Below are positions 4,751 through 62,375 of a stretch of 64,000 nucleotides of DNA, piece by piece. The translations under genes and the position numbers were made by a program. Numbering within the stretch: position 1 is the stretch's first letter; every line of letters starts with the position of its first letter. Source of the stretch: Candidatus Saccharimonadota bacterium (GTDB lineage Bacteria > Patescibacteriota > Saccharimonadia > Saccharimonadales > VXPC01); assembly GCA_026707815.1 (NCBI GenBank), contig JAPOWB010000003.1:3380-67379 (forward strand). Reading direction: 5' to 3'. The notes under the pieces were generated by a model. That model had not been told where the DNA came from, did not search any database, and saw nothing but the letters and a program-made list of their open reading frames with translations.

Positions 4751-5617
4751 TTGACCATGAATTTATTTTTCATAGATGACAGTGGCAGCAAGCAATGGGA
4801 CACCCCTCATGCTGAGTCATTTATTGTAAAACCTCCAGCAAGAACAGAGCAAAATAGGAAGTACTGGGAATCCAATTATTTTGTTCTTGCCGGGATTCAT
4901 GTAGACAGCCGCTTAGTAGCCAAATTAAATCAAGAAATCAGGCAAAAGAAAAAGGAGGTTTTCGGTAACGGACAGGTCGAGATAAAATCGTACTACCTGC
5001 GAAACCCTGAAGCACGAAAGAGGCAATACCTGCGGAAGTATGATTTAACCCCAAAAGATTTGAAAAGTTTCGTTGATACCTTCTGGTACAAGTTGCTCGA
5101 GGATAACAAGGAAAACATTCAAATCCAAGCAGTCGTTTTAGATAAAAGATATTACAGCGAGCAAAGGCATCGTCATTCCCCACTAGATATAGCCACGGTG
5201 GCTCTTCTGGATAGAATAGAAAAACATCCTAAAAAACAATGCCGGATAATATTTGATCAAATGGAATCAAGTATAAGATCAACCAAAGGTGATCAGGGTA
5301 GAATATTACAGATAGCTGACAAGTCAATTAATCTAGATTCACGGCGAGATGGCTCGTACAGCCATATAGACGTAAAGTTTGGAAAATCATCTTCTTCAAA
5401 TTTCCTGCAATTAGCCGACATTGTCGCCTATAATATAAGAAGGCAGTTTGTAGATTTTGGCGATCAACAGACAACCAAGCCACTCAGATTTTTGAAATAT
5501 TACCCCTATTTTGAGAGAATGATGGACAACTTTTACTGCAATTCCAAAAATTCAGGGATACAGGGAGACGGTCTAGTAAAACTACCGAACCCACCAAAGT
5601 TTATTAAATCTAACTAA
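4751..5617 (+). CDS. DUF3800 family protein
   Basis: N-terminal FFIDDSGS and C-terminal NFLQLADIVAY match the two signature motifs of DUF3800. The ATG at 4757 lies 11 nt after the upstream stop, so the two genes are likely co-transcribed. Confidence 0.65.
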   Translation: MTMNLFFIDDSGSKQWDTPHAESFIVKPPARTEQNRKYWESNYFVLAGIHVDSRLVAKLNQEIRQKKKEVFGNGQVEIKSYYLRNPEARKRQYLRKYDLTPKDLKSFVDTFWYKLLEDNKENIQIQAVVLDKRYYSEQRHRHSPLDIATVALLDRIEKHPKKQCRIIFDQMESSIRSTKGDQGRILQIADKSINLDSRRDGSYSHIDVKFGKSSSSNFLQLADIVAYNIRRQFVDFGDQQTTKPLRFLKYYPYFERMMDNFYCNSKNSGIQGDGLVKLPNPPKFIKSN

Positions 5618-28807: not shown

Positions 28808-31627
28808 TTAAAAGAGTCGTTTCAAGAATTGACCAGTGTATGACTGCTTAGTTTGGGCAACTTTTTCCGGTGTTCCAGTAATGACAATTTCTCCACCACC
28901 ATCCCCGCCTCGAGGTCCCATATCAATAATCCAATCGGCATTTTTTAGAACATCCAAATTATGCTCAATGATAATCATACTATTGCCAGCATCGACTAAA
29001 GCGTGTAGAACTTCTAATAATTTTTTAATATCATCCATATGCAAACCTGTAGTTGGCTCATCTAAAATATATAGAGTCTTACCAGTGGCTCGCTTGCTTA
29101 GCTCTTTAGCTAATTTAATTCTCTGGGCTTCACCACCACTCAAAGTTGTCGCTGATTGCCCCAAAGTAATATAACCTAAGCCTACTTGATGTAAGGTCGT
29201 CAATTTATTGTAGATACTGGGAATATTAGTAAAAAACTCTAAGGCTACATTAACCGTCATATTCAAGATATCGGCAATGTTTTTGCCTTTGTAATGGACT
29301 TCTAAAACTTCCTTGGTATAACGTTTGCCCTGACAAGCTTGACAGGTAATGAAAATATCAGGTAAAAAATGCATTTCTTTCTTTAAAGCCCCATCACCAG
29401 CACACGTTTCGCAACGACCACCACTAACATTAAAACTAAATCTGCCTGGTGTGTAACCTCGCTGACGAGCTAAGGGGGTTTTAGCAAACAGTTCCCTAAT
29501 AGGCGTATAAAGTCCAACATAAGTAGCTGGATTACTTCGAGGAGTTCGCCCGATGGGGTCTTGATTAATTATGATAACTTTATCTAAATGTTCGGAACCT
29601 GTCAGAGATTGATGTGCTCCAACAGCAATATTAAAAACTTTATTTAGCCGAGCTTTAAGTTCAGAAGCTAAGATACCGTTAATTAGAGTGCTCTTACCAG
29701 AGCCTGACATTCCAGAAATTGCCACTAAAACACCTAGTGGTATTTGAATGTCAATATTTTTTAAGTTATGTTGGTTAGCTCCTTTAATCTCAATATATTT
29801 GCGATTATCAATCGGACGCCGATGATTTGGAAAGCTAATAGATTTCTCCCCTCTTAAATATTGCCCAGTCAGAGATTTGGGATGACTATAAATTTGATCA
29901 GGTGTTCCAGAAGCGACTATCTGACCACCTTGCAAACCAGCTTGAGGTCCAACATCAACCACGAAATCTGCTTGTCTGATGGTGTCTTCATCGTGTTCAA
30001 CAATTAGTAAACTATTGCCAAGATCTCTAAGTTTTTTTAAAGTACTCAACAATCTCTGATGATCAAATTGATGTAAGCCAATCGATGGTTCATCCAAGAT
30101 ATAAAGAACCCCTTGCAAACCTGAACCAATTTGGGTGGCTAATCTAATTCTTTGAGCCTCACCACCACTCAGAGTATTAGCTGCTCTATCTAAAGTTAGA
30201 TAATCTAAACCAACTTCTTCCAAAAAACCAAGTCGAGCTTTAATTTCTCTTAGAATTGATTGACCAATTTTCAGATCTTGAGAACTCAATTTTAATCCAT
30301 TAAAAAATTTTTGAGCTTCAGTCACGGTTAAACCGGTAATTTGGGCAATGGATTTATCAGCAATAGTAACTGCTAGAACAGCTGGATTAAGTCTTTGACC
30401 TTTGCACTGATGACAAGGTTTTTCCACCATATAACGTTCGATCTCGGCTCTCCGATAACTGCTATCCGTTTCCTTATGCAATCTTTCCAATTGAGGAATC
30501 ACACCCTCAAAAGTAGTTGTAAAAACTCGACCAGTAGTTAAGGGGATTTGATATTCTTCATGATCTGTACCATAAAAAACTTTATCTAAATTTTCTTCAG
30601 TTAGATCGCCTGTTGGAACTCTGATGCTAAAATTAAATCTATCGGCCACAGCTGCCAGTTTTTTAAAGGTCCAAGCTTCAGGACGAAAACGGTTATAAGG
30701 TCGAATTGCCCCCTCAGTGATGCTTAAATTGCCATTAGGGATAACCAGTTGAGGATCAACTTCTAATCTTCGACCTAAACCCATGCAGACCGGACAAGCT
30801 CCGAACGGACTGTTAAAACTAAAAGTCCTCGGTTCCATTTCTGGAGGTTCAAAATCAGGAAAATCAGAATTATAATACCTCTGGCTAAAACGATAAGTTT
30901 TATCTTCATCGACATCAACAACCAATATTCGACTATCAGTAACACTTAGCCCAGCCTCGATTGATTGTCCAATTCTTTCAGCAAATTCATCATTATTAAT
31001 AATCCGATCAATGACGATTTCAATATTGTGTTTTTTATTCTTATCCAATTCGGGGAATTCATCTAAATCATAAGTAGTGCCGTTGACTCGAACTCGACTA
31101 TAGCCTTGTTTTTGGTAGATATCGGGTATATGGGCATGTTGACCTTTCTTGGCATCAACAATTGAAGCTAAAATTAAAAAACGATGATCTTTAGGTAAAT
31201 TTAAAACTCCTTTGACAATATCCTCATAAGACATGGTCTGAATGATTTGACCAGATGGATCATGGGCAACGCCAATCCGAGCATACAATAATCTTAAATA
31301 ATCATAGATTTCAGTGACTGTGGCAACGGTGCTACGAGGATTCCTAGAAGCAGTTTTTTGATCAATAGAAATAACTGGACTTAAGCCAGTAATCTGCTCA
31401 ACTTCAGGTTTTTCTTTCATGCCCAAAAACTGGCGGGCATAAGAACTTAAAGACTCCAAATAGCGTCTCTGTCCTTCTGCAAAGATGGTATCAAATGCCA
31501 GTGATGACTTACCTGAACCCGAGACACCAGTGATCACTACTAATTGATGACGGGGGATTTCAAGATTAATATTCTTTAAATTGTGTTCTCTGGCACCTTT
31601 AATAACAATATAATCCGACAGAGGCAT
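28808..31627 (-). CDS. uvrA: excinuclease ABC subunit A
   Basis: Two ABC modules (GVSGSGKSS and GMSGSGKST; two LSGGE signatures) and zinc-finger CxxC pairs. Length is 939 aa. Confidence 0.95.
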   Translation of the reverse strand: MPLSDYIVIKGAREHNLKNINLEIPRHQLVVITGVSGSGKSSLAFDTIFAEGQRRYLESLSSYARQFLGMKEKPEVEQITGLSPVISIDQKTASRNPRSTVATVTEIYDYLRLLYARIGVAHDPSGQIIQTMSYEDIVKGVLNLPKDHRFLILASIVDAKKGQHAHIPDIYQKQGYSRVRVNGTTYDLDEFPELDKNKKHNIEIVIDRIINNDEFAERIGQSIEAGLSVTDSRILVVDVDEDKTYRFSQRYYNSDFPDFEPPEMEPRTFSFNSPFGACPVCMGLGRRLEVDPQLVIPNGNLSITEGAIRPYNRFRPEAWTFKKLAAVADRFNFSIRVPTGDLTEENLDKVFYGTDHEEYQIPLTTGRVFTTTFEGVIPQLERLHKETDSSYRRAEIERYMVEKPCHQCKGQRLNPAVLAVTIADKSIAQITGLTVTEAQKFFNGLKLSSQDLKIGQSILREIKARLGFLEEVGLDYLTLDRAANTLSGGEAQRIRLATQIGSGLQGVLYILDEPSIGLHQFDHQRLLSTLKKLRDLGNSLLIVEHDEDTIRQADFVVDVGPQAGLQGGQIVASGTPDQIYSHPKSLTGQYLRGEKSISFPNHRRPIDNRKYIEIKGANQHNLKNIDIQIPLGVLVAISGMSGSGKSTLINGILASELKARLNKVFNIAVGAHQSLTGSEHLDKVIIINQDPIGRTPRSNPATYVGLYTPIRELFAKTPLARQRGYTPGRFSFNVSGGRCETCAGDGALKKEMHFLPDIFITCQACQGKRYTKEVLEVHYKGKNIADILNMTVNVALEFFTNIPSIYNKLTTLHQVGLGYITLGQSATTLSGGEAQRIKLAKELSKRATGKTLYILDEPTTGLHMDDIKKLLEVLHALVDAGNSMIIIEHNLDVLKNADWIIDMGPRGGDGGGEIVITGTPEKVAQTKQSYTGQFLKRLF

Positions 31628-31795
31628 AACTACTTAATTATAACTGATAATCAATTCGAATGTTGAAATTTTAATTTATTGCTAGCTTATGACGTTTCTG
31701 TTATTTTTTTTAAAAAATTCAAAAGATTATTACGCTGTATTAATAATTTATTCAAGTTTTTTGTCTTCACTCCTCTGCATATTGTGAAAATAATT

Positions 31796-33394
31796 TCAAA
31801 AGAAATAATCTGCTAAATATTGTCTTAGATGGGGATCAACCACATAAATATAAGTCCCTCTCATAGCCCGAGTTAAAAGAACCTTATAAATATTTTTAAT
31901 ATACTGCTCCAATTCTGAAGAGCTGGCTGTCCTCTTGCCATTAAAATCGTGGTAATTATCGGGGTTAATTTTTAAAATTTTAGATATAGGATCATAAATT
32001 AGATCTTGACCAATGATTACCCCAGCATAGTTGAGATCATAGCCTTGGATAGTGTGAATGCAACCAACTTCATTGATAGCATTTTCAGAATTTGGCCAAT
32101 CTAAAACCGAAGAGCTATTCCACTTCAAGGGAATGTTATCAATAATAAAATCATATTCTAGATTAGGATTCTTTTTGGTTAACCATTTCCAGCTGTAGCC
32201 AGCGACTATTCTTGATAACCCAACTCTTTTATCGTGCTCTTTGATAAGCTGAATCATCTCTGCCAAGGAATTAAATAATCTAAATTCATAAGAAGTAAAA
32301 GATCTCTTAATGGGTCGCCTATTATTCAAAATGTCATCAATGTAATTGATATAATTTTTACCAGCTCTAATCCTAATCTGGTCATTCAAATAATATTCAT
32401 CTATATTGAGATTGCTCAAAGCTTGAGGTCTGATATCCCCCGGCTGGATAGATTGCTGTTCATCATAGAGCAGAATTTGACTTCGCGATTGATGCAAAAT
32501 CCAATCTAATTGACTGCCATCATGCCCAAAATTGAATCGCCTATTGATGGTATCAAAGTGAGAATATTGAGATAGATTAACTCGCCTCTTCAAACGATGA
32601 GCTTCGTCAACAATTAAAATATCATAGGTTTTCTTAGCGACATCATAAGGAGAGATTGCCATATCTGGTTTTAAATCAACATCTGATTTAAAAACCATCT
32701 TCAAACTATATCTTAGCTGTTGCATGGGAATAACTAGAGCGATCGTCAATCTTGGATATTTCTGCTTAAATCTTTTGACTAAATAAGTGGCTAAAATAGT
32801 TTTACCAGTACCTGGTTCCCCCGAAATAACACAAGTTTTTGACATCTCGGAATCTTGAGCAAAAGAAGCTAATAAATCATTGGCTATATTTTGTTGAGTT
32901 TCAGTTAAAGCTTTATAGGGCGAATACTTGAAAAGGATATTATTTTCAATATCTTCAATATTTTGATCAACAATTTGATTAGTCTTTAAATTCCGCCAAA
33001 TAACTTTGAAACTTAATCGATAATTTTCAGCTTGATGATAATCCAAATTACTTAAACCATCGTTGCGATTCAGTAATTCATGACCACTACCTGCCAACCA
33101 GCGAATTAAATGGGATTCCAGATCTTTGCAAACAGATTGATTGTAATCAAAATCAGTAATAACATGTAAAATTTTTAAGTCTGATTTTTGTGGATCAGTT
33201 AAATGTTCGCGAGCTCGATTTAAGGCCTTATGAGTTTCTCCAACATAAGCAACTTTATTTTTAGATTGTTGGGGATTGGATAAAAGATAAACAACTGGCC
33301 AATTTAAACCATACCTTTTACCATCATCGGATACATAATCTTTTAATTCTTCCAGTTGACCTTTACCAAAATGAAATTGTTTTATTTGTGCCAT
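31796..33394 (-). CDS. GIY-YIG nuclease domain fused to DUF2075 (Schlafen group-3-type) P-loop helicase-like ATPase
   Basis: The N-terminus VVYLL...AYVGET...R..EH...LLNRN fits GIY-YIG. Walker A ISGEPGTGKT and Walker B ILIVDEAHRL fit the ATPase part. The C-terminal IHTIQGYDLNY and VLLTRAMRG are typical of DUF2075. Confidence 0.7.
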   Translation of the reverse strand: MAQIKQFHFGKGQLEELKDYVSDDGKRYGLNWPVVYLLSNPQQSKNKVAYVGETHKALNRAREHLTDPQKSDLKILHVITDFDYNQSVCKDLESHLIRWLAGSGHELLNRNDGLSNLDYHQAENYRLSFKVIWRNLKTNQIVDQNIEDIENNILFKYSPYKALTETQQNIANDLLASFAQDSEMSKTCVISGEPGTGKTILATYLVKRFKQKYPRLTIALVIPMQQLRYSLKMVFKSDVDLKPDMAISPYDVAKKTYDILIVDEAHRLKRRVNLSQYSHFDTINRRFNFGHDGSQLDWILHQSRSQILLYDEQQSIQPGDIRPQALSNLNIDEYYLNDQIRIRAGKNYINYIDDILNNRRPIKRSFTSYEFRLFNSLAEMIQLIKEHDKRVGLSRIVAGYSWKWLTKKNPNLEYDFIIDNIPLKWNSSSVLDWPNSENAINEVGCIHTIQGYDLNYAGVIIGQDLIYDPISKILKINPDNYHDFNGKRTASSSELEQYIKNIYKVLLTRAMRGTYIYVVDPHLRQYLADYFF

Positions 33395-33434
33395 TTATCA
33401 ATGATTAGAATAAATCAAAATATTGAATGAAGAT

Positions 33435-33758
33435 TCACTGGGTAAATTTAGTATATTTTTGAGCATTGCCCTTTGATGAAGAAATAGGATATTTTTTCTC
33501 GTTAATAGCAAGTTTTTGAAGACCAATCTCTTCTAAATCTAGTTTTAAATTGTGACTCAGTAACAGTAAATAAATGTAAATATCGGCAATTTCTTGTTTA
33601 ATTTCTGACAGATTATCAAAGCTATCCTGCCATTGAAAATGCTCCAATAATTCAGCTGATTCTATGACCAAGGATTTAGCTAAATTGCTAGGTTTGTGAA
33701 ATTGTTGCCAATCTCGAGCTTGGCAAAATTTAAGTAGTTGGTCAATAAGTTTTGTCAT
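33435..33758 (-). CDS. MazG-like nucleotide pyrophosphohydrolase (small all-alpha NTP-PPase)
   Basis: RDWQQFHKPSNLAKSLVIESAELLEHFQW and EIADIYIYLL match the EExxE/metal-binding helices of MazG-type NTP-PPases. It lies 40 nt upstream of the DUF2075 gene on the same strand. Confidence 0.7.
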   Translation of the reverse strand: MTKLIDQLLKFCQARDWQQFHKPSNLAKSLVIESAELLEHFQWQDSFDNLSEIKQEIADIYIYLLLLSHNLKLDLEEIGLQKLAINEKKYPISSSKGNAQKYTKFTQ

Positions 33759-33876
33759 ATACCCATAATAATATGTTAATCACTTAAAAATCATTGTATA
33801 AATATAATCAAAGCACAAATATTGACTGAATTTTTTAAATTTTAATGCTTAACTTTAAACGTATTAGATATCTTTT

Positions 33877-34051
33877 AGAGAATCAGAGCAAGAGAGTAAG
33901 TTGCCTTGAAGCATATTCAACACGCTTCAAAGGAAGATTCAACTCTGCCCCCGAAGGTGCAGTAAGTTGACATCACGGTCTCAGGGCTGGTTTTCGGAGG
34001 GATAGCCCACGAAACGGTGTGTCTGACTTATACTCTCTTCTCTGATTCTCT
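33877..34051. ncRNA. unidentified structured RNA-like element (G+C-rich, ORF-free)
   Basis: Closing helix 33877-33901 / 34026-34051 (12+7+5 bp with small bulges). Internal hairpins at 33904-33933 and 33945-33962. Possible H-type pseudoknot (GGGCT 33984-88 / AGCCC 34004-08; GTTTTCG 33990-96 / CGAAAC 34010-15). Strand and identity are unresolved. Confidence 0.5.
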
Positions 34052-34380
34052 GACCCAACTAGATTGAAATTACAATCTGCCTCATCTAAGATCCACTTCT
34101 CTTCTTCTCGCTTCTCTCAAATCGAGGCAAATCGTCTCAACATAATCCCAAGCCTAGTGGACAGATTGGGGATCTACTTAGATCCACTTCACTGCTTTAC
34201 AGTGAAACATTAAACTCTAAATTAACTTATAAAGGATCGTCTTTGGGTATTTAATATTCAACAAAGATAGTTGACGAGAATTGTAACTAATAGATATTTC
34301 AATTGCAAATAATTTTTGTATACTCATCAGAAATATTGTTTAATATATTTAGTTTAAATTTCACATATAAGATCCTCAAT

Positions 34381-34821
34381 ATGTCCTTGTCAGCCAAGTT
34401 GCGTCGCAAATTATCCATTTATGGTTTGAATACTTTGGGAATTTTTTTGCTGCTCTTAATTCCCTTTATTGGACCTCTGCCTGGACCAGGGGGAATCCCT
34501 CTGCTAATCGCTGGACTGAAATTATTATCTGTTCATAATAAATGGGCGCAACAACTTCAAGATTTTATTAAGAAGAAAGGTCTTGGTCTTAGTGATTTAT
34601 TATTCCCTCAGTCATCTAATGCCCAAATTATTTGGGATTTAGGTATTTTATGGGGCTGGGTTTTATCGATCTCTATTTTAGTCATATACAGTCCAGGTGG
34701 AATTTGGATGTTGCTGATCAGCACTCTGATGACTACTTTAGGGGTTTGCTGGTTAAGGAATCACTATCGTTGGCAACGCTTCTTGATTTATCTAAAAATC
34801 AATAAAAAAATTCATAAATAA
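34381..34821 (+). CDS. PGPGW-motif small membrane protein
   Basis: LLLIPFIGPLPGPGGIPLLIAGLKLLS matches the PGPGW transmembrane family. I prefer the ATG at 34381 over the TTG at 34303. Confidence 0.6.
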   Translation: MSLSAKLRRKLSIYGLNTLGIFLLLLIPFIGPLPGPGGIPLLIAGLKLLSVHNKWAQQLQDFIKKKGLGLSDLLFPQSSNAQIIWDLGILWGWVLSISILVIYSPGGIWMLLISTLMTTLGVCWLRNHYRWQRFLIYLKINKKIHK

Positions 34822-54197: not shown

Positions 54198-54216
54198 GCC
54201 GGAAATTGTAATATAT

Positions 54217-54270
54217 CCAATTCTAGTTAATACTTGTAAACTAGAATTGGATTCAAATAAATTCTAGTTA
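54217..54270 (-). promoter_or_regulatory. operator-like repeat cluster upstream of the interrupted Fic gene
   Basis: Perfect 12-bp inverted repeat CCAATTCTAGTT / AACTAGAATTGG (54217-28 / 54239-50). A third copy AATTCTAGTTA lies at 54260-70. The cluster sits 20-75 nt upstream of the ATG at 54197. Confidence 0.45.
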
Positions 54271-54539
54271 TAAGGCTTATACTGGAATTGGAGCATTTCA
54301 ATTTCCAGACTTTGTAAAAAACCTATGCTCCAACTCCAGTATTCAGCCACTTTTTATAATTCTGCAAGGTAATTTTTGATCTAAAATTAAGTTAACATTG
54401 ACTATTTCAAGTCAGTTGGCTAATTTCAAATAAATGACCTTAGTGAATCTAGAATTAATGTTAAGAATTACAATAATGTAAAGTTAACACAAAAGAACTA
54501 ACATTTCTGCCGCAGAAACCAAAATTAAATGCTTAAAAT

Positions 54540-61336: not shown

Positions 61337-61771
61337 TGGTGGAGCTGGCGGGCACTACCCCCGCATCCGCTACATTGTAACAACTCTACGCTTTACAAGT
61401 TTAGTCCATTTAAAAAATTTCTTTGTCGACTTGTTGATCTTAAAAACAGACAAAATGACCAACAATAACGCAAGTTTATTTCTTGAAGATATTCCACTAC
61501 AAATATCTGGCAATCTCGAAAAATATGAAATCTTTAAACTTCTGATTCAAATCGAGATGGTTTGGAAAAAATGAAATTTAAAGTTTGCTTAGAATTAATC
61601 TAGGCAAAAGCATGAACTGCGGAAGATCTCCTAAAAATATCTAGGCAATTCCGAATTCCTGCTACGATATAGTTTTCGGCAACTATAGTTTTTGGCTCAA
61701 TAATGGCAAGCCTAACCAACTTGCACGTTTCTGGTTGTCAAAGAACATACGTCTAACTTAAAGTCAGCCCC
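61337..61771 (-). ncRNA. ssrA: tmRNA
   Basis: The 5' end GGGGCTGACTTTAAGTTAGACG and the 3' end GCCCGCCAGCTCCACCA form a tRNA-Ala-like acceptor with G3:U70. The resume context AAAAACUAUAGUU|GCC GAA AAC UAU parallels E. coli (from memory). Predicted tag is AENYIVAGIRNCLDIFRRSSAVHAFA followed by TAG (61680..61600). Confidence 0.85.
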
Positions 61772-62009
61772 CAACTATCATTCAACTTTCGAATAATTGA
61801 ATAACACTTAAGAATGACTATATTCTCTTTGGTTTTCAAGAGATAAAGTCTAGGACATTATTCTAGCACACTTTTACCTAAACAATGAGTAGATACAGAA
61901 AGTAACTCTCTGAGGGGAGTGAGTATGTCATTGATATACATTAACATGCCTAATTCAAGCACATCTTGCAATTACAACACATACCTCACTCCCCCGAAGC
62001 GAACCTTGT

Positions 62010-62282
62010 TTAGGTCAGCGATGGAATGCCAACCTCTCTCGCTTGACGGTTGATCCGTCGACGCAAATCGTCGGGAAGAACCACGCCTTCCTTTGACAGA
62101 AGTCTCGTCGCATCACGACACTGCTGCCGAAACGCCTGACGAGACAAATCAGGAATCTCCGTACAATCAATGTCCACCACAAGGTAGACTAGAGTGTTGA
62201 GAAGATGAGCGTCGGCAGTATTCTCCAAGATGGGGAGTAAACTCCCCTGCAGAAGATTGTCACCCCAGTAATCATATTGCAT
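62010..62282 (-). CDS. G+C-rich orphan protein (cassette G, 90 aa)
   Basis: GAAAGGAGA lies 6 nt before the ATG. Composition is far above flanking DNA. No motif recognised. Confidence 0.55.
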   Translation of the reverse strand: MQYDYWGDNLLQGSLLPILENTADAHLLNTLVYLVVDIDCTEIPDLSRQAFRQQCRDATRLLSKEGVVLPDDLRRRINRQAREVGIPSLT

Positions 62283-62375
62283 CTTTATCTCCTTTCTTTT
62301 GTCGATTGATCAGACAAGATGCTCACTGCATTTACTCTCAAACTCTATTAGTCTAAGATAATTACAGCTGTATAT

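Follow-up and report, generated by a model that had tools for sequence, protein, structure and literature searches.

A G+C-rich, strongly folded element of 175 nt (M2, positions 33877-34051, minus strand) lies at the fixed edge of a site at which strains of one Saccharibacteria species carry alternative defence genes. It is located in a stretch of 64,000 nt (the window) from a Candidatus Saccharimonadota genome, and full-length copies are retained next to either of the two alternative cargos. Folding predicts that M2 is the 3' module of a larger block, whose upstream module folds far better on the minus than on the plus strand. The explanation tentatively preferred here, which is possible rather than probable, is that the block represents a cargo-independent structured leader or upstream transcript of about 330 nt, which would be read on the minus strand, would remain unterminated before the slot and might be processed into a stable RNA.

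Fold and extent of the structured block

In minimum free energy (MFE) folds, M2 forms a four-way junction with a closing helix of 21-26 bp. Its folding energy is -79.0 kcal/mol on the minus strand (z = -8.4) and -73.3 kcal/mol on the plus strand (z = -6.3), and on neither strand was any of 200 dinucleotide shuffles as stable. With DNA folding parameters, a z-score of -8.4 was also obtained. When G+C content is considered, M2 is more structured than all phase-sampled 175-nt segments of the window. The resemblance to a structured RNA that had been noticed in the initial annotation is thus borne out by fold energies far beyond those of shuffled sequences on both strands. The predicted pairs have high probabilities (0.93 on average, and 0.8-0.98 for the three local hairpins on the junction), so that the fold is well defined. 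Read on the minus strand, it consists of the 21-bp helix P1 (34051-34031 with 33898-33877), P2 with a 15-nt loop AUCCCUCCGAAAACC (34030-33963), P3 with a C(UUCG)G tetraloop at 33955-33952 (33962-33945), and P4 (33944-33899). All pairs of P1 are Watson-Crick pairs. The helix contains the perfect 12-bp inverted repeat AGAGAATCAGAG/CTCTGATTCTCT, whose arms are 151 nt apart and which grows to the 21 bp of P1 and five further pairs in the MFE folds; as terminal inverted repeats, the ends of M2 are perfect over 12 bp and near-perfect over about 24 bp. The closing helix, a 9-bp hairpin, and a CTGC/GCAG hairpin had all been described before and were recovered at their positions. The hairpin at about 33904-33933 has 9 bp on the plus strand versus 13 bp on the minus strand, and the loop of the CTGC/GCAG hairpin (33945-33962) is CGAA on the plus strand, which corresponds to UUCG on the minus strand. 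The H-type pseudoknot suggested for 33984-34015 is geometrically possible and would, in the predicted fold, compete with the lower stem of the same hairpin.

The G+C content of M2 is 47% (45-51% for the whole island) compared to 36.6% for the window and 19-25% for the adjacent spacers, which confirms its description as a G+C island. Its description as ORF-free holds in essence; the region is overlapped by only three short ORFs of 41, 25, and 49 aa, and the two plus-strand ORFs of 41 and 49 aa have no Pfam match. Frame +2 contains two stops in 118 codons.

The G+C island runs on to about 34210, which is beyond the right edge that had been assigned to it. According to the predicted folds, the structured unit has a size of about 330 nt (about 34207-33877) and consists of a hairpin H1 and two modules, M1 and M2, of which M2 is the 3' module; the earlier unit size of 175 nt therefore does not hold. 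The minus-strand sequence of 346 nt from 34215 to 33870 folds as H1, M1, and M2 with an energy of -136 kcal/mol, versus -113 kcal/mol on the plus strand. H1 (34187-34207, minus strand) is a 9-bp hairpin (UUUCACUGU-AAA-GCAGUGAAG) that is present in both the MFE and the centroid folds. M1 (34052-34184, minus strand) is a G·U-rich module of 133 nt with a 12-bp closing helix that abuts M2 directly. It holds a 9-bp hairpin and a 20-bp hairpin, the latter with a purine tract (GAGAGAAGCGAGAAGAAGAGAAG) in its apical loop. On the minus strand M1 folds with -45.7 kcal/mol (z = -4.1) versus -29.2 kcal/mol (z = -2.3) on the plus strand. This loss of 16.5 kcal/mol is due to the many G·U pairs, of which the whole block has 17 on the minus strand versus 8 on the plus strand.

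Two further features of M1 were observed. A repeat CT(A/T)AGATCCACTTC, which reads GAAGUGGAUCU(U/A)AG on the minus strand, occurs at 34086-34099 and at 34177-34190, 91 nt apart, and one copy is inside the palindrome GGATCTAAGTAGATCC. Judged from its sequence, the repeat could be a protein-binding site or could have arisen by chance. Furthermore, the purine tract in the apical loop (34101-34123) resembles the 5' strand of P1 (34033-34051) on the minus strand. It could in principle compete for the 3' strand of P1, which might lead to an alternative pairing or a switch.

In all collections searched, the block is represented by three full, near-identical haplotypes and one fragment. Four substitutions were found within the 330-nt block. 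One of them is located in M1 (34088, minus-strand U to C, converting a U·G into a C-G pair) and three are located in M2, namely C to U at 33959 (C-G to U·G), A to G at 33914 (U-A to U·G), and A to G at 33883 (U-A to U·G). In the minus-strand fold, all four substitutions keep standard pairs (372 of 372 cells paired); in the plus-strand fold, two of the four break pairs and one falls into a loop. This pattern agrees with an RNA-level constraint on the predicted minus-strand fold. The agreement is supportive only, because the changes in the three haplotypes comprise no double (two-sided) changes and four one-sided wobble changes, because the reference structure was derived from one of the compared sequences, because the pattern is not significant (neutral p about 0.10-0.23), and because the SNP density among strains is alike inside and outside M2 (0.62% in the surrounding 19.5 kb, 4 of 622 intergenic positions, and 1 of 175 positions in M2). 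Together with the folding energies, the G·U content, and the C(UUCG)G tetraloop, the four wobble-type substitutions favor the minus strand as the likely strand of the predicted RNA.

The strain-variable slot and the distribution of the block

The interval between the PGPGW gene and uvrA exists in two states within the species, and the shared flanks have nucleotide identities of 99.1-100%. In the window and in seven further loci (L001-L005, L099, and L100), the interval contains a mazG-like gene (33435-33758, minus strand) and a gene for a GIY-YIG/Schlafen-group-3 (DUF2075) helicase (31796-33394, minus strand). In loci L094/L098, L101, and L102, which stem from several independent samples, a 911-aa Type IIG (MmeI-like) restriction-modification (R-M) enzyme is encoded instead (PADLOC, 1116 bits). 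The orientation of the cargo is the same in both states. M2 is full-length beside both cargos; all 12 of 12 full copies reach 204-210 bits with a covariance model and have identities of 98-100%. The G+C content of M2 differs from that of the host and from that of the cargo.

Homology between the two states extends from exoI via the PGPGW gene, a promoter-like site, H1, M1, and M2 to 48 nt behind M2. The states are identical down to 33829, followed by a stretch of about 40 nt in which similarity fades until the left breakpoint is reached at about 33790. A -10-like box shared by both states falls inside this stretch (33792-33797, minus strand; TACAAT in the window and, according to the alignment, TATAAT at the corresponding position of the MmeI strains). 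Homology is lost in the cargo and returns at 31670, 43 nt before uvrA, in a conserved right flank (31628-31670, minus strand) with the TATAAT box of uvrA (31642-31637) located 9 nt before the ATG. Based on this extent of homology, the slot comprises positions 31671-33801 (minus strand), and M2 belongs to its fixed left flank, with a distance of 50-75 nt to the breakpoint of cargo exchange. The graded decay at the left breakpoint suggests a homologous exchange with a more diverged lineage sharing the flank. A structure matching M2 was not found at the right border of the slot. One ENA sample, ERZ23496111, holds both states, L094 with the MmeI cargo and L095 with the mazG-helicase cargo, so that strains with different cargo coexist in one metagenome; the contig of L095 ends inside M2.

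The initial annotation had considered M2 as a cis-regulator of either neighboring gene group, and its co-occurrence with both was examined. The MazG-like protein and the DUF2075 helicase form a widespread conserved pair; among 84 helicase loci collected from ENA, NCBI, Logan, and JGI, MazG is adjacent in 67 loci from many phyla, with a median gap of 108 nt upstream of mazG. Searches of these 84 loci with the covariance model (about 720 kb) and nhmmer found nothing like M2. The loci of the closest helicase homologs (60%, 52%, and 50% identity) and 80 metagenomic helicase loci lack M2, and the nearest cassette (L010, 60% identity) is located 55 nt after secG. Likewise, the nearest homologs of the MmeI-like enzyme (69% identity) are found in unrelated contexts without M2. 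Thus, M2 is absent from the other MazG/DUF2075 cassettes searched and is kept in MmeI strains that lack this operon.

A similar result was obtained for the PGPGW gene. The nearest sampled relatives of ExoI have identities of about 55%. In three ExoI relatives (loci L006-L009), the backbone from alaS via obg, exoI, and a small gene to uvrA is conserved, and so is the TATAAT box 9 nt before the ATG of uvrA. Only 77-117 nt separate the small gene from uvrA in these loci; between the PGPGW position and uvrA there is neither MazG nor a helicase nor room for the M2 block, and searches of the loci with nhmmer and the covariance model returned nothing like M2. L006, in which the small gene at this position does encode PGPGW, has a gap of only 77 nt to uvrA and lacks M2. 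M2 is therefore tied to neither the MazG/DUF2075 cassette nor PGPGW, and a general role as regulator of either one was dismissed.

The mazG-helicase pair itself shows several further features. PADLOC returned only partial Nhi/AbiO/PDC-S14/S41 matches for this pair (window 31796-33758, minus strand; L010 and L012-L093), and a literature description of the pair was not found. Its alternation with a Type IIG R-M system at one site suggests that it is an undescribed two-gene defence or DNA-damage system. Many close homologs of the helicase (P0137, P0152, P0154, P0156, and others) have a size of about 670-680 aa and also match Peptidase_S24 (LexA-like, PF00717), which, as a domain match, hints at an SOS- or RecA-linked control of this helicase family. 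In L012/L013 (Dojkabacteria), a G-quadruplex-like tract of G-runs (GGGCGGGGAGCGGAGGTGAGGGTGGGGATGGGGTAGGGGTAGG) is located upstream of mazG at about 5480-5525.

M2 could not be assigned to a known family. The search against Rfam that had been proposed for M2 was conducted with cmscan on the whole window using all 4,227 families of Rfam 15, among them ribozymes, Y RNA, phage pRNA, and large ornate RNAs. It yielded six tRNAs and a tmRNA elsewhere and no match to M2 at the gathering threshold, and a permissive scan of 33700-34400 with E <= 10 produced three noise matches of 13-15 bits. The earlier exclusion of RNase P, SRP RNA, 6S RNA, and riboswitches is upheld by this result. ARAGORN detected nothing in the M2 region. 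M2 is single-copy, as no further copies were found within the 64-kb window. The other G+C islands of the window were considered as related RNAs and rejected, since they lie inside ORFs. The pattern AGAGAATCAGAG-N135-165-CTCTGATTCTCT had no matches in IMG/VR viral contigs and in genomes of 185,579 species (one each), and a BLAST search in distant mode against phages and plasmids gave no match to M2. In addition, frame +2 of 33863-34210 was translated and used as a pseudo-protein probe with degenerate spaced seeds (six 8-residue seeds per scan); tblastn searches with this probe in genome, viral, and JGI metagenome collections found no relative. As judged from these searches, the M2 block is found in one Saccharibacteria species only among the collections searched. 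Signs of mobility were also looked for. No convincing att-like flanking repeats were found over 31600-34400, no target-site duplication was found around the inverted repeats of M2 (flanks ...CTTTT and GACCC...), and the called genes within about 10 kb include neither an integrase nor a transposase. Within the same distance and in the alternative cargo, called genes had no Pfam match to the reverse transcriptase family. The literature provided nothing applicable on MazG with DUF2075, on structured RNAs of CPR bacteria, or on defence hotspots with non-coding RNAs.

Other structured or G+C-rich features were observed elsewhere in the window. The A+T-rich intergenic segment 54201-54345 contains a perfect 14-bp stem (54215-54252) and an 18-bp stem (54279-54342). 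It is the strongest G+C-corrected fold of the phase-sampled scan and is unrelated to M2 in sequence; its hairpins may be terminators or another structured element. Beside the tmRNA gene, a 57% G+C island at 61945-62290 (minus strand) looks like a short ORF of about 90 aa and not like an RNA. The tmRNA match itself (61337-61771, minus strand) has a length of 435 nt versus 374 model positions and scores only 55.8 bits; being long and low-scoring, it probably carries insertions.

Expression of the block and competing explanations

The minus strand has a sigma-70-like promoter candidate (TTGCAA, 17-nt spacer, TACAAT; 34308-34280) with 9 of 12 consensus matches, whose sequence does not differ among the haplotypes. 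Its predicted start at about 34273 is located about 65 nt upstream of H1. Seven sigma-70-like sites were found in the region versus 4.6 expected; the match is weak evidence because such sites are near chance frequency in this A+T-rich region. A comparable promoter-like site upstream of M2 was not found on the plus strand; on this strand, a candidate promoter of PGPGW itself is located behind M2, at 34271-34298. No terminator-like site was found on either strand between 33400 and 34500, which includes the A+T-rich spacer after P1 (33802-33876, minus strand) that was delimited by alignment of the cargo states.

From these features we infer transcription of the block, its promoter, the lack of termination, processing by RNase III, and any effect on the expression of the cargo. 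An RNA consisting of H1, M1, and M2 would be read on the minus strand, probably from the site at 34308-34280, and transcription would continue toward whichever cargo fills the slot, because no terminator follows M2. The RNA would most likely act in cis and independently of the cargo. Processing and stability of the read-through transcript would then be set by two long duplexes, the 21-bp helix P1, which looks like an RNase III-type substrate, and the 12-bp helix that closes M1; M1 and M2 may be freed as stable RNAs. Judged from the sequence, a separate -10 box seems to precede each cargo downstream of M2, so that the cargo may not depend on read-through.

The same minus-strand signatures would equally be expected for a lineage-specific small RNA gene of a stand-alone trans-acting or housekeeping type, whose ends are shielded by terminal helices as in 6S, tmRNA, Y, and RNase P RNAs. 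Such a gene would be found beside the slot only because cargo exchange uses conserved genes as homology arms, similar to the tRNA and tmRNA genes that border genomic islands. This is in agreement with the closure of both M1 and M2 by helices joining their own 5' and 3' ends, with the conservation of M2 under either cargo, and with the fading similarity at the left breakpoint, which points to homologous recombination in the flank. However, no terminator was found, no known family was matched, and a housekeeping RNA would not usually be missing from the locus in relatives and from all collections searched; this explanation is regarded as somewhat unlikely. An element acting at the level of DNA and lacking an RNA function, either the relic of a MITE-like mobile or foreign palindrome or an attC-like single-stranded DNA recombination structure at the edge of the slot, would account for the terminal inverted repeats with the fully Watson-Crick-paired P1, for the strong fold of M2 on both strands and with DNA parameters, for the short distance to the breakpoint, and for the restriction to one lineage with a G+C content unlike that of host and cargo. 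Against this stand the single copy in the window and the zero matches of the terminal-repeat pattern in viral contigs and species genomes, the lack of a target-site duplication and of a nearby integrase or transposase, and the right slot border without a matching structure. In addition, a double-stranded palindrome does not explain the strand asymmetry and G·U richness of M1, and the ends lack attC R''/R' boxes on a four-way junction that is not a single bulged hairpin. A DNA-level element is therefore considered unlikely.

A plus-strand RNA, that is a small RNA or a long 5' leader regulating PGPGW, would fit the good fold of M2 on this strand and the location of PGPGW downstream of it. It is very doubtful, since the plus strand has no upstream promoter-like site and PGPGW has its own candidate, since M1 is weak on this strand and two of the four substitutions break pairs there, and since L006 has PGPGW at this position but no M2. 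Least probable is that M2 belongs to a known family (6S, SRP, RNase P, riboswitch, or retron RNA) but has diverged too far for the models to detect it, or that it is a decayed coding remnant. The size of 175 nt and the long closing helix do resemble 6S RNA or a retron msr-msd, but there is no Rfam match even at E <= 10, the fold is branched instead of rod-like with a central bubble, the called genes within about 10 kb include no reverse transcriptase, and the element is not conserved in relatives. A coding origin could be reflected by the few stops in frame +2, but neither a Pfam match nor a tblastn relative in the three collections was found. In a more far-reaching reading, a conserved structured RNA beside the exchangeable position of anti-phage genes would form a functional component of a cargo-independent 'defence slot' platform and serve whichever system is plugged in. 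It might control expression or processing, act on phage factors as an RNA sensor or decoy, or mark the recombination arm that allows cassettes to be exchanged in a reduced CPR genome without obvious integrases. This reading is improbable at present.

Comparison with known systems

RNase III-type duplexes in long structured 5' leaders are known from the rnc and pnp leaders of E. coli and from the processing sites of early phage transcripts. As in rnc/pnp-type leaders, a duplex of at least 20 bp is formed from sequences flanking a structured insert, and M2 is located upstream of protein genes in the same orientation with no terminator in between. In contrast to these leaders, the downstream genes vary by strain and seem to have their own -10 box, processing is putative here, and the block is larger and more ornate, with a four-way junction and a second module. 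M2 also resembles 6S RNA in its size (about 175-185 nt for 6S RNA) and in the joining of its ends in a long, slightly bulged closing helix. However, 6S RNA is a rod with a closing stem, a large central bubble, and a terminal stem, whereas M2 is a branched four-way junction according to MFE, centroid, and pair probabilities; furthermore, M2 has no Rfam 6S match at E <= 10 and is absent from the syntenic locus in L006-L009. With retron msr-msd regions (150-250 nt), M2 shares a structured RNA that is closed by terminal inverted repeats beside defence genes, but there is no reverse transcriptase among the called genes nearby, and M2 persists beside two unrelated cargos.

Similarities also exist to elements that mark sites of gene exchange. 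Integron attC sites and CALIN cassettes likewise contain imperfect palindromes that fold better on one strand and border exchangeable, often defence-related cassettes. In attC sites, a single bulged hairpin of 57-141 bp carries R'' (RYYYAAC) and R' (GTTRRRY) boxes at its two ends, and each cassette border has one such site. M2, in contrast, has the ends AGAGAAUC.../...GAUUCUCU without RYYYAAC/GTTRRRY boxes, is 175 nt long with a four-way junction, and is found on one side of the cargo only, while the breakpoint is 50-75 nt away and homologous-recombination-like and no integrase was seen near M2. Like tRNA and tmRNA genes at island borders, M2 is a conserved structured locus at the fixed edge of a variable island; unlike at these borders, there is no integrase, no direct repeat of the 3' end of the RNA at the far border, and no tRNA-like gene detected by ARAGORN.

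The GC-IGR approach has delivered orphan structured-RNA candidates from G+C-rich intergenic regions of A+T-rich genomes, which are normally backed by covariation across multiple species. M2 resembles such candidates in being a G+C island with a strong predicted fold that lies in an A+T-rich intergenic region and belongs to no known family, and differs from them in being known from only three near-identical haplotypes. Its general significance is limited, because it is known from one species-level lineage only and because no covarying pairs are seen among its haplotypes. Descriptions of lineage-specific structured RNAs for Saccharibacteria (CPR) were not found in the literature; if transcribed and functional, the M2 block would be a family-less structured RNA from this group. 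It is best filed as a family-less addition to the lineage-specific structured RNAs and leaders that are seen as G+C islands. Its position is unusual among these: in a CPR bacterium, it forms the fixed border of a site at which defence genes are swapped. This prompts one to ask whether structured RNAs contribute to the way in which defence genes are expressed or exchanged in ultra-small genomes.
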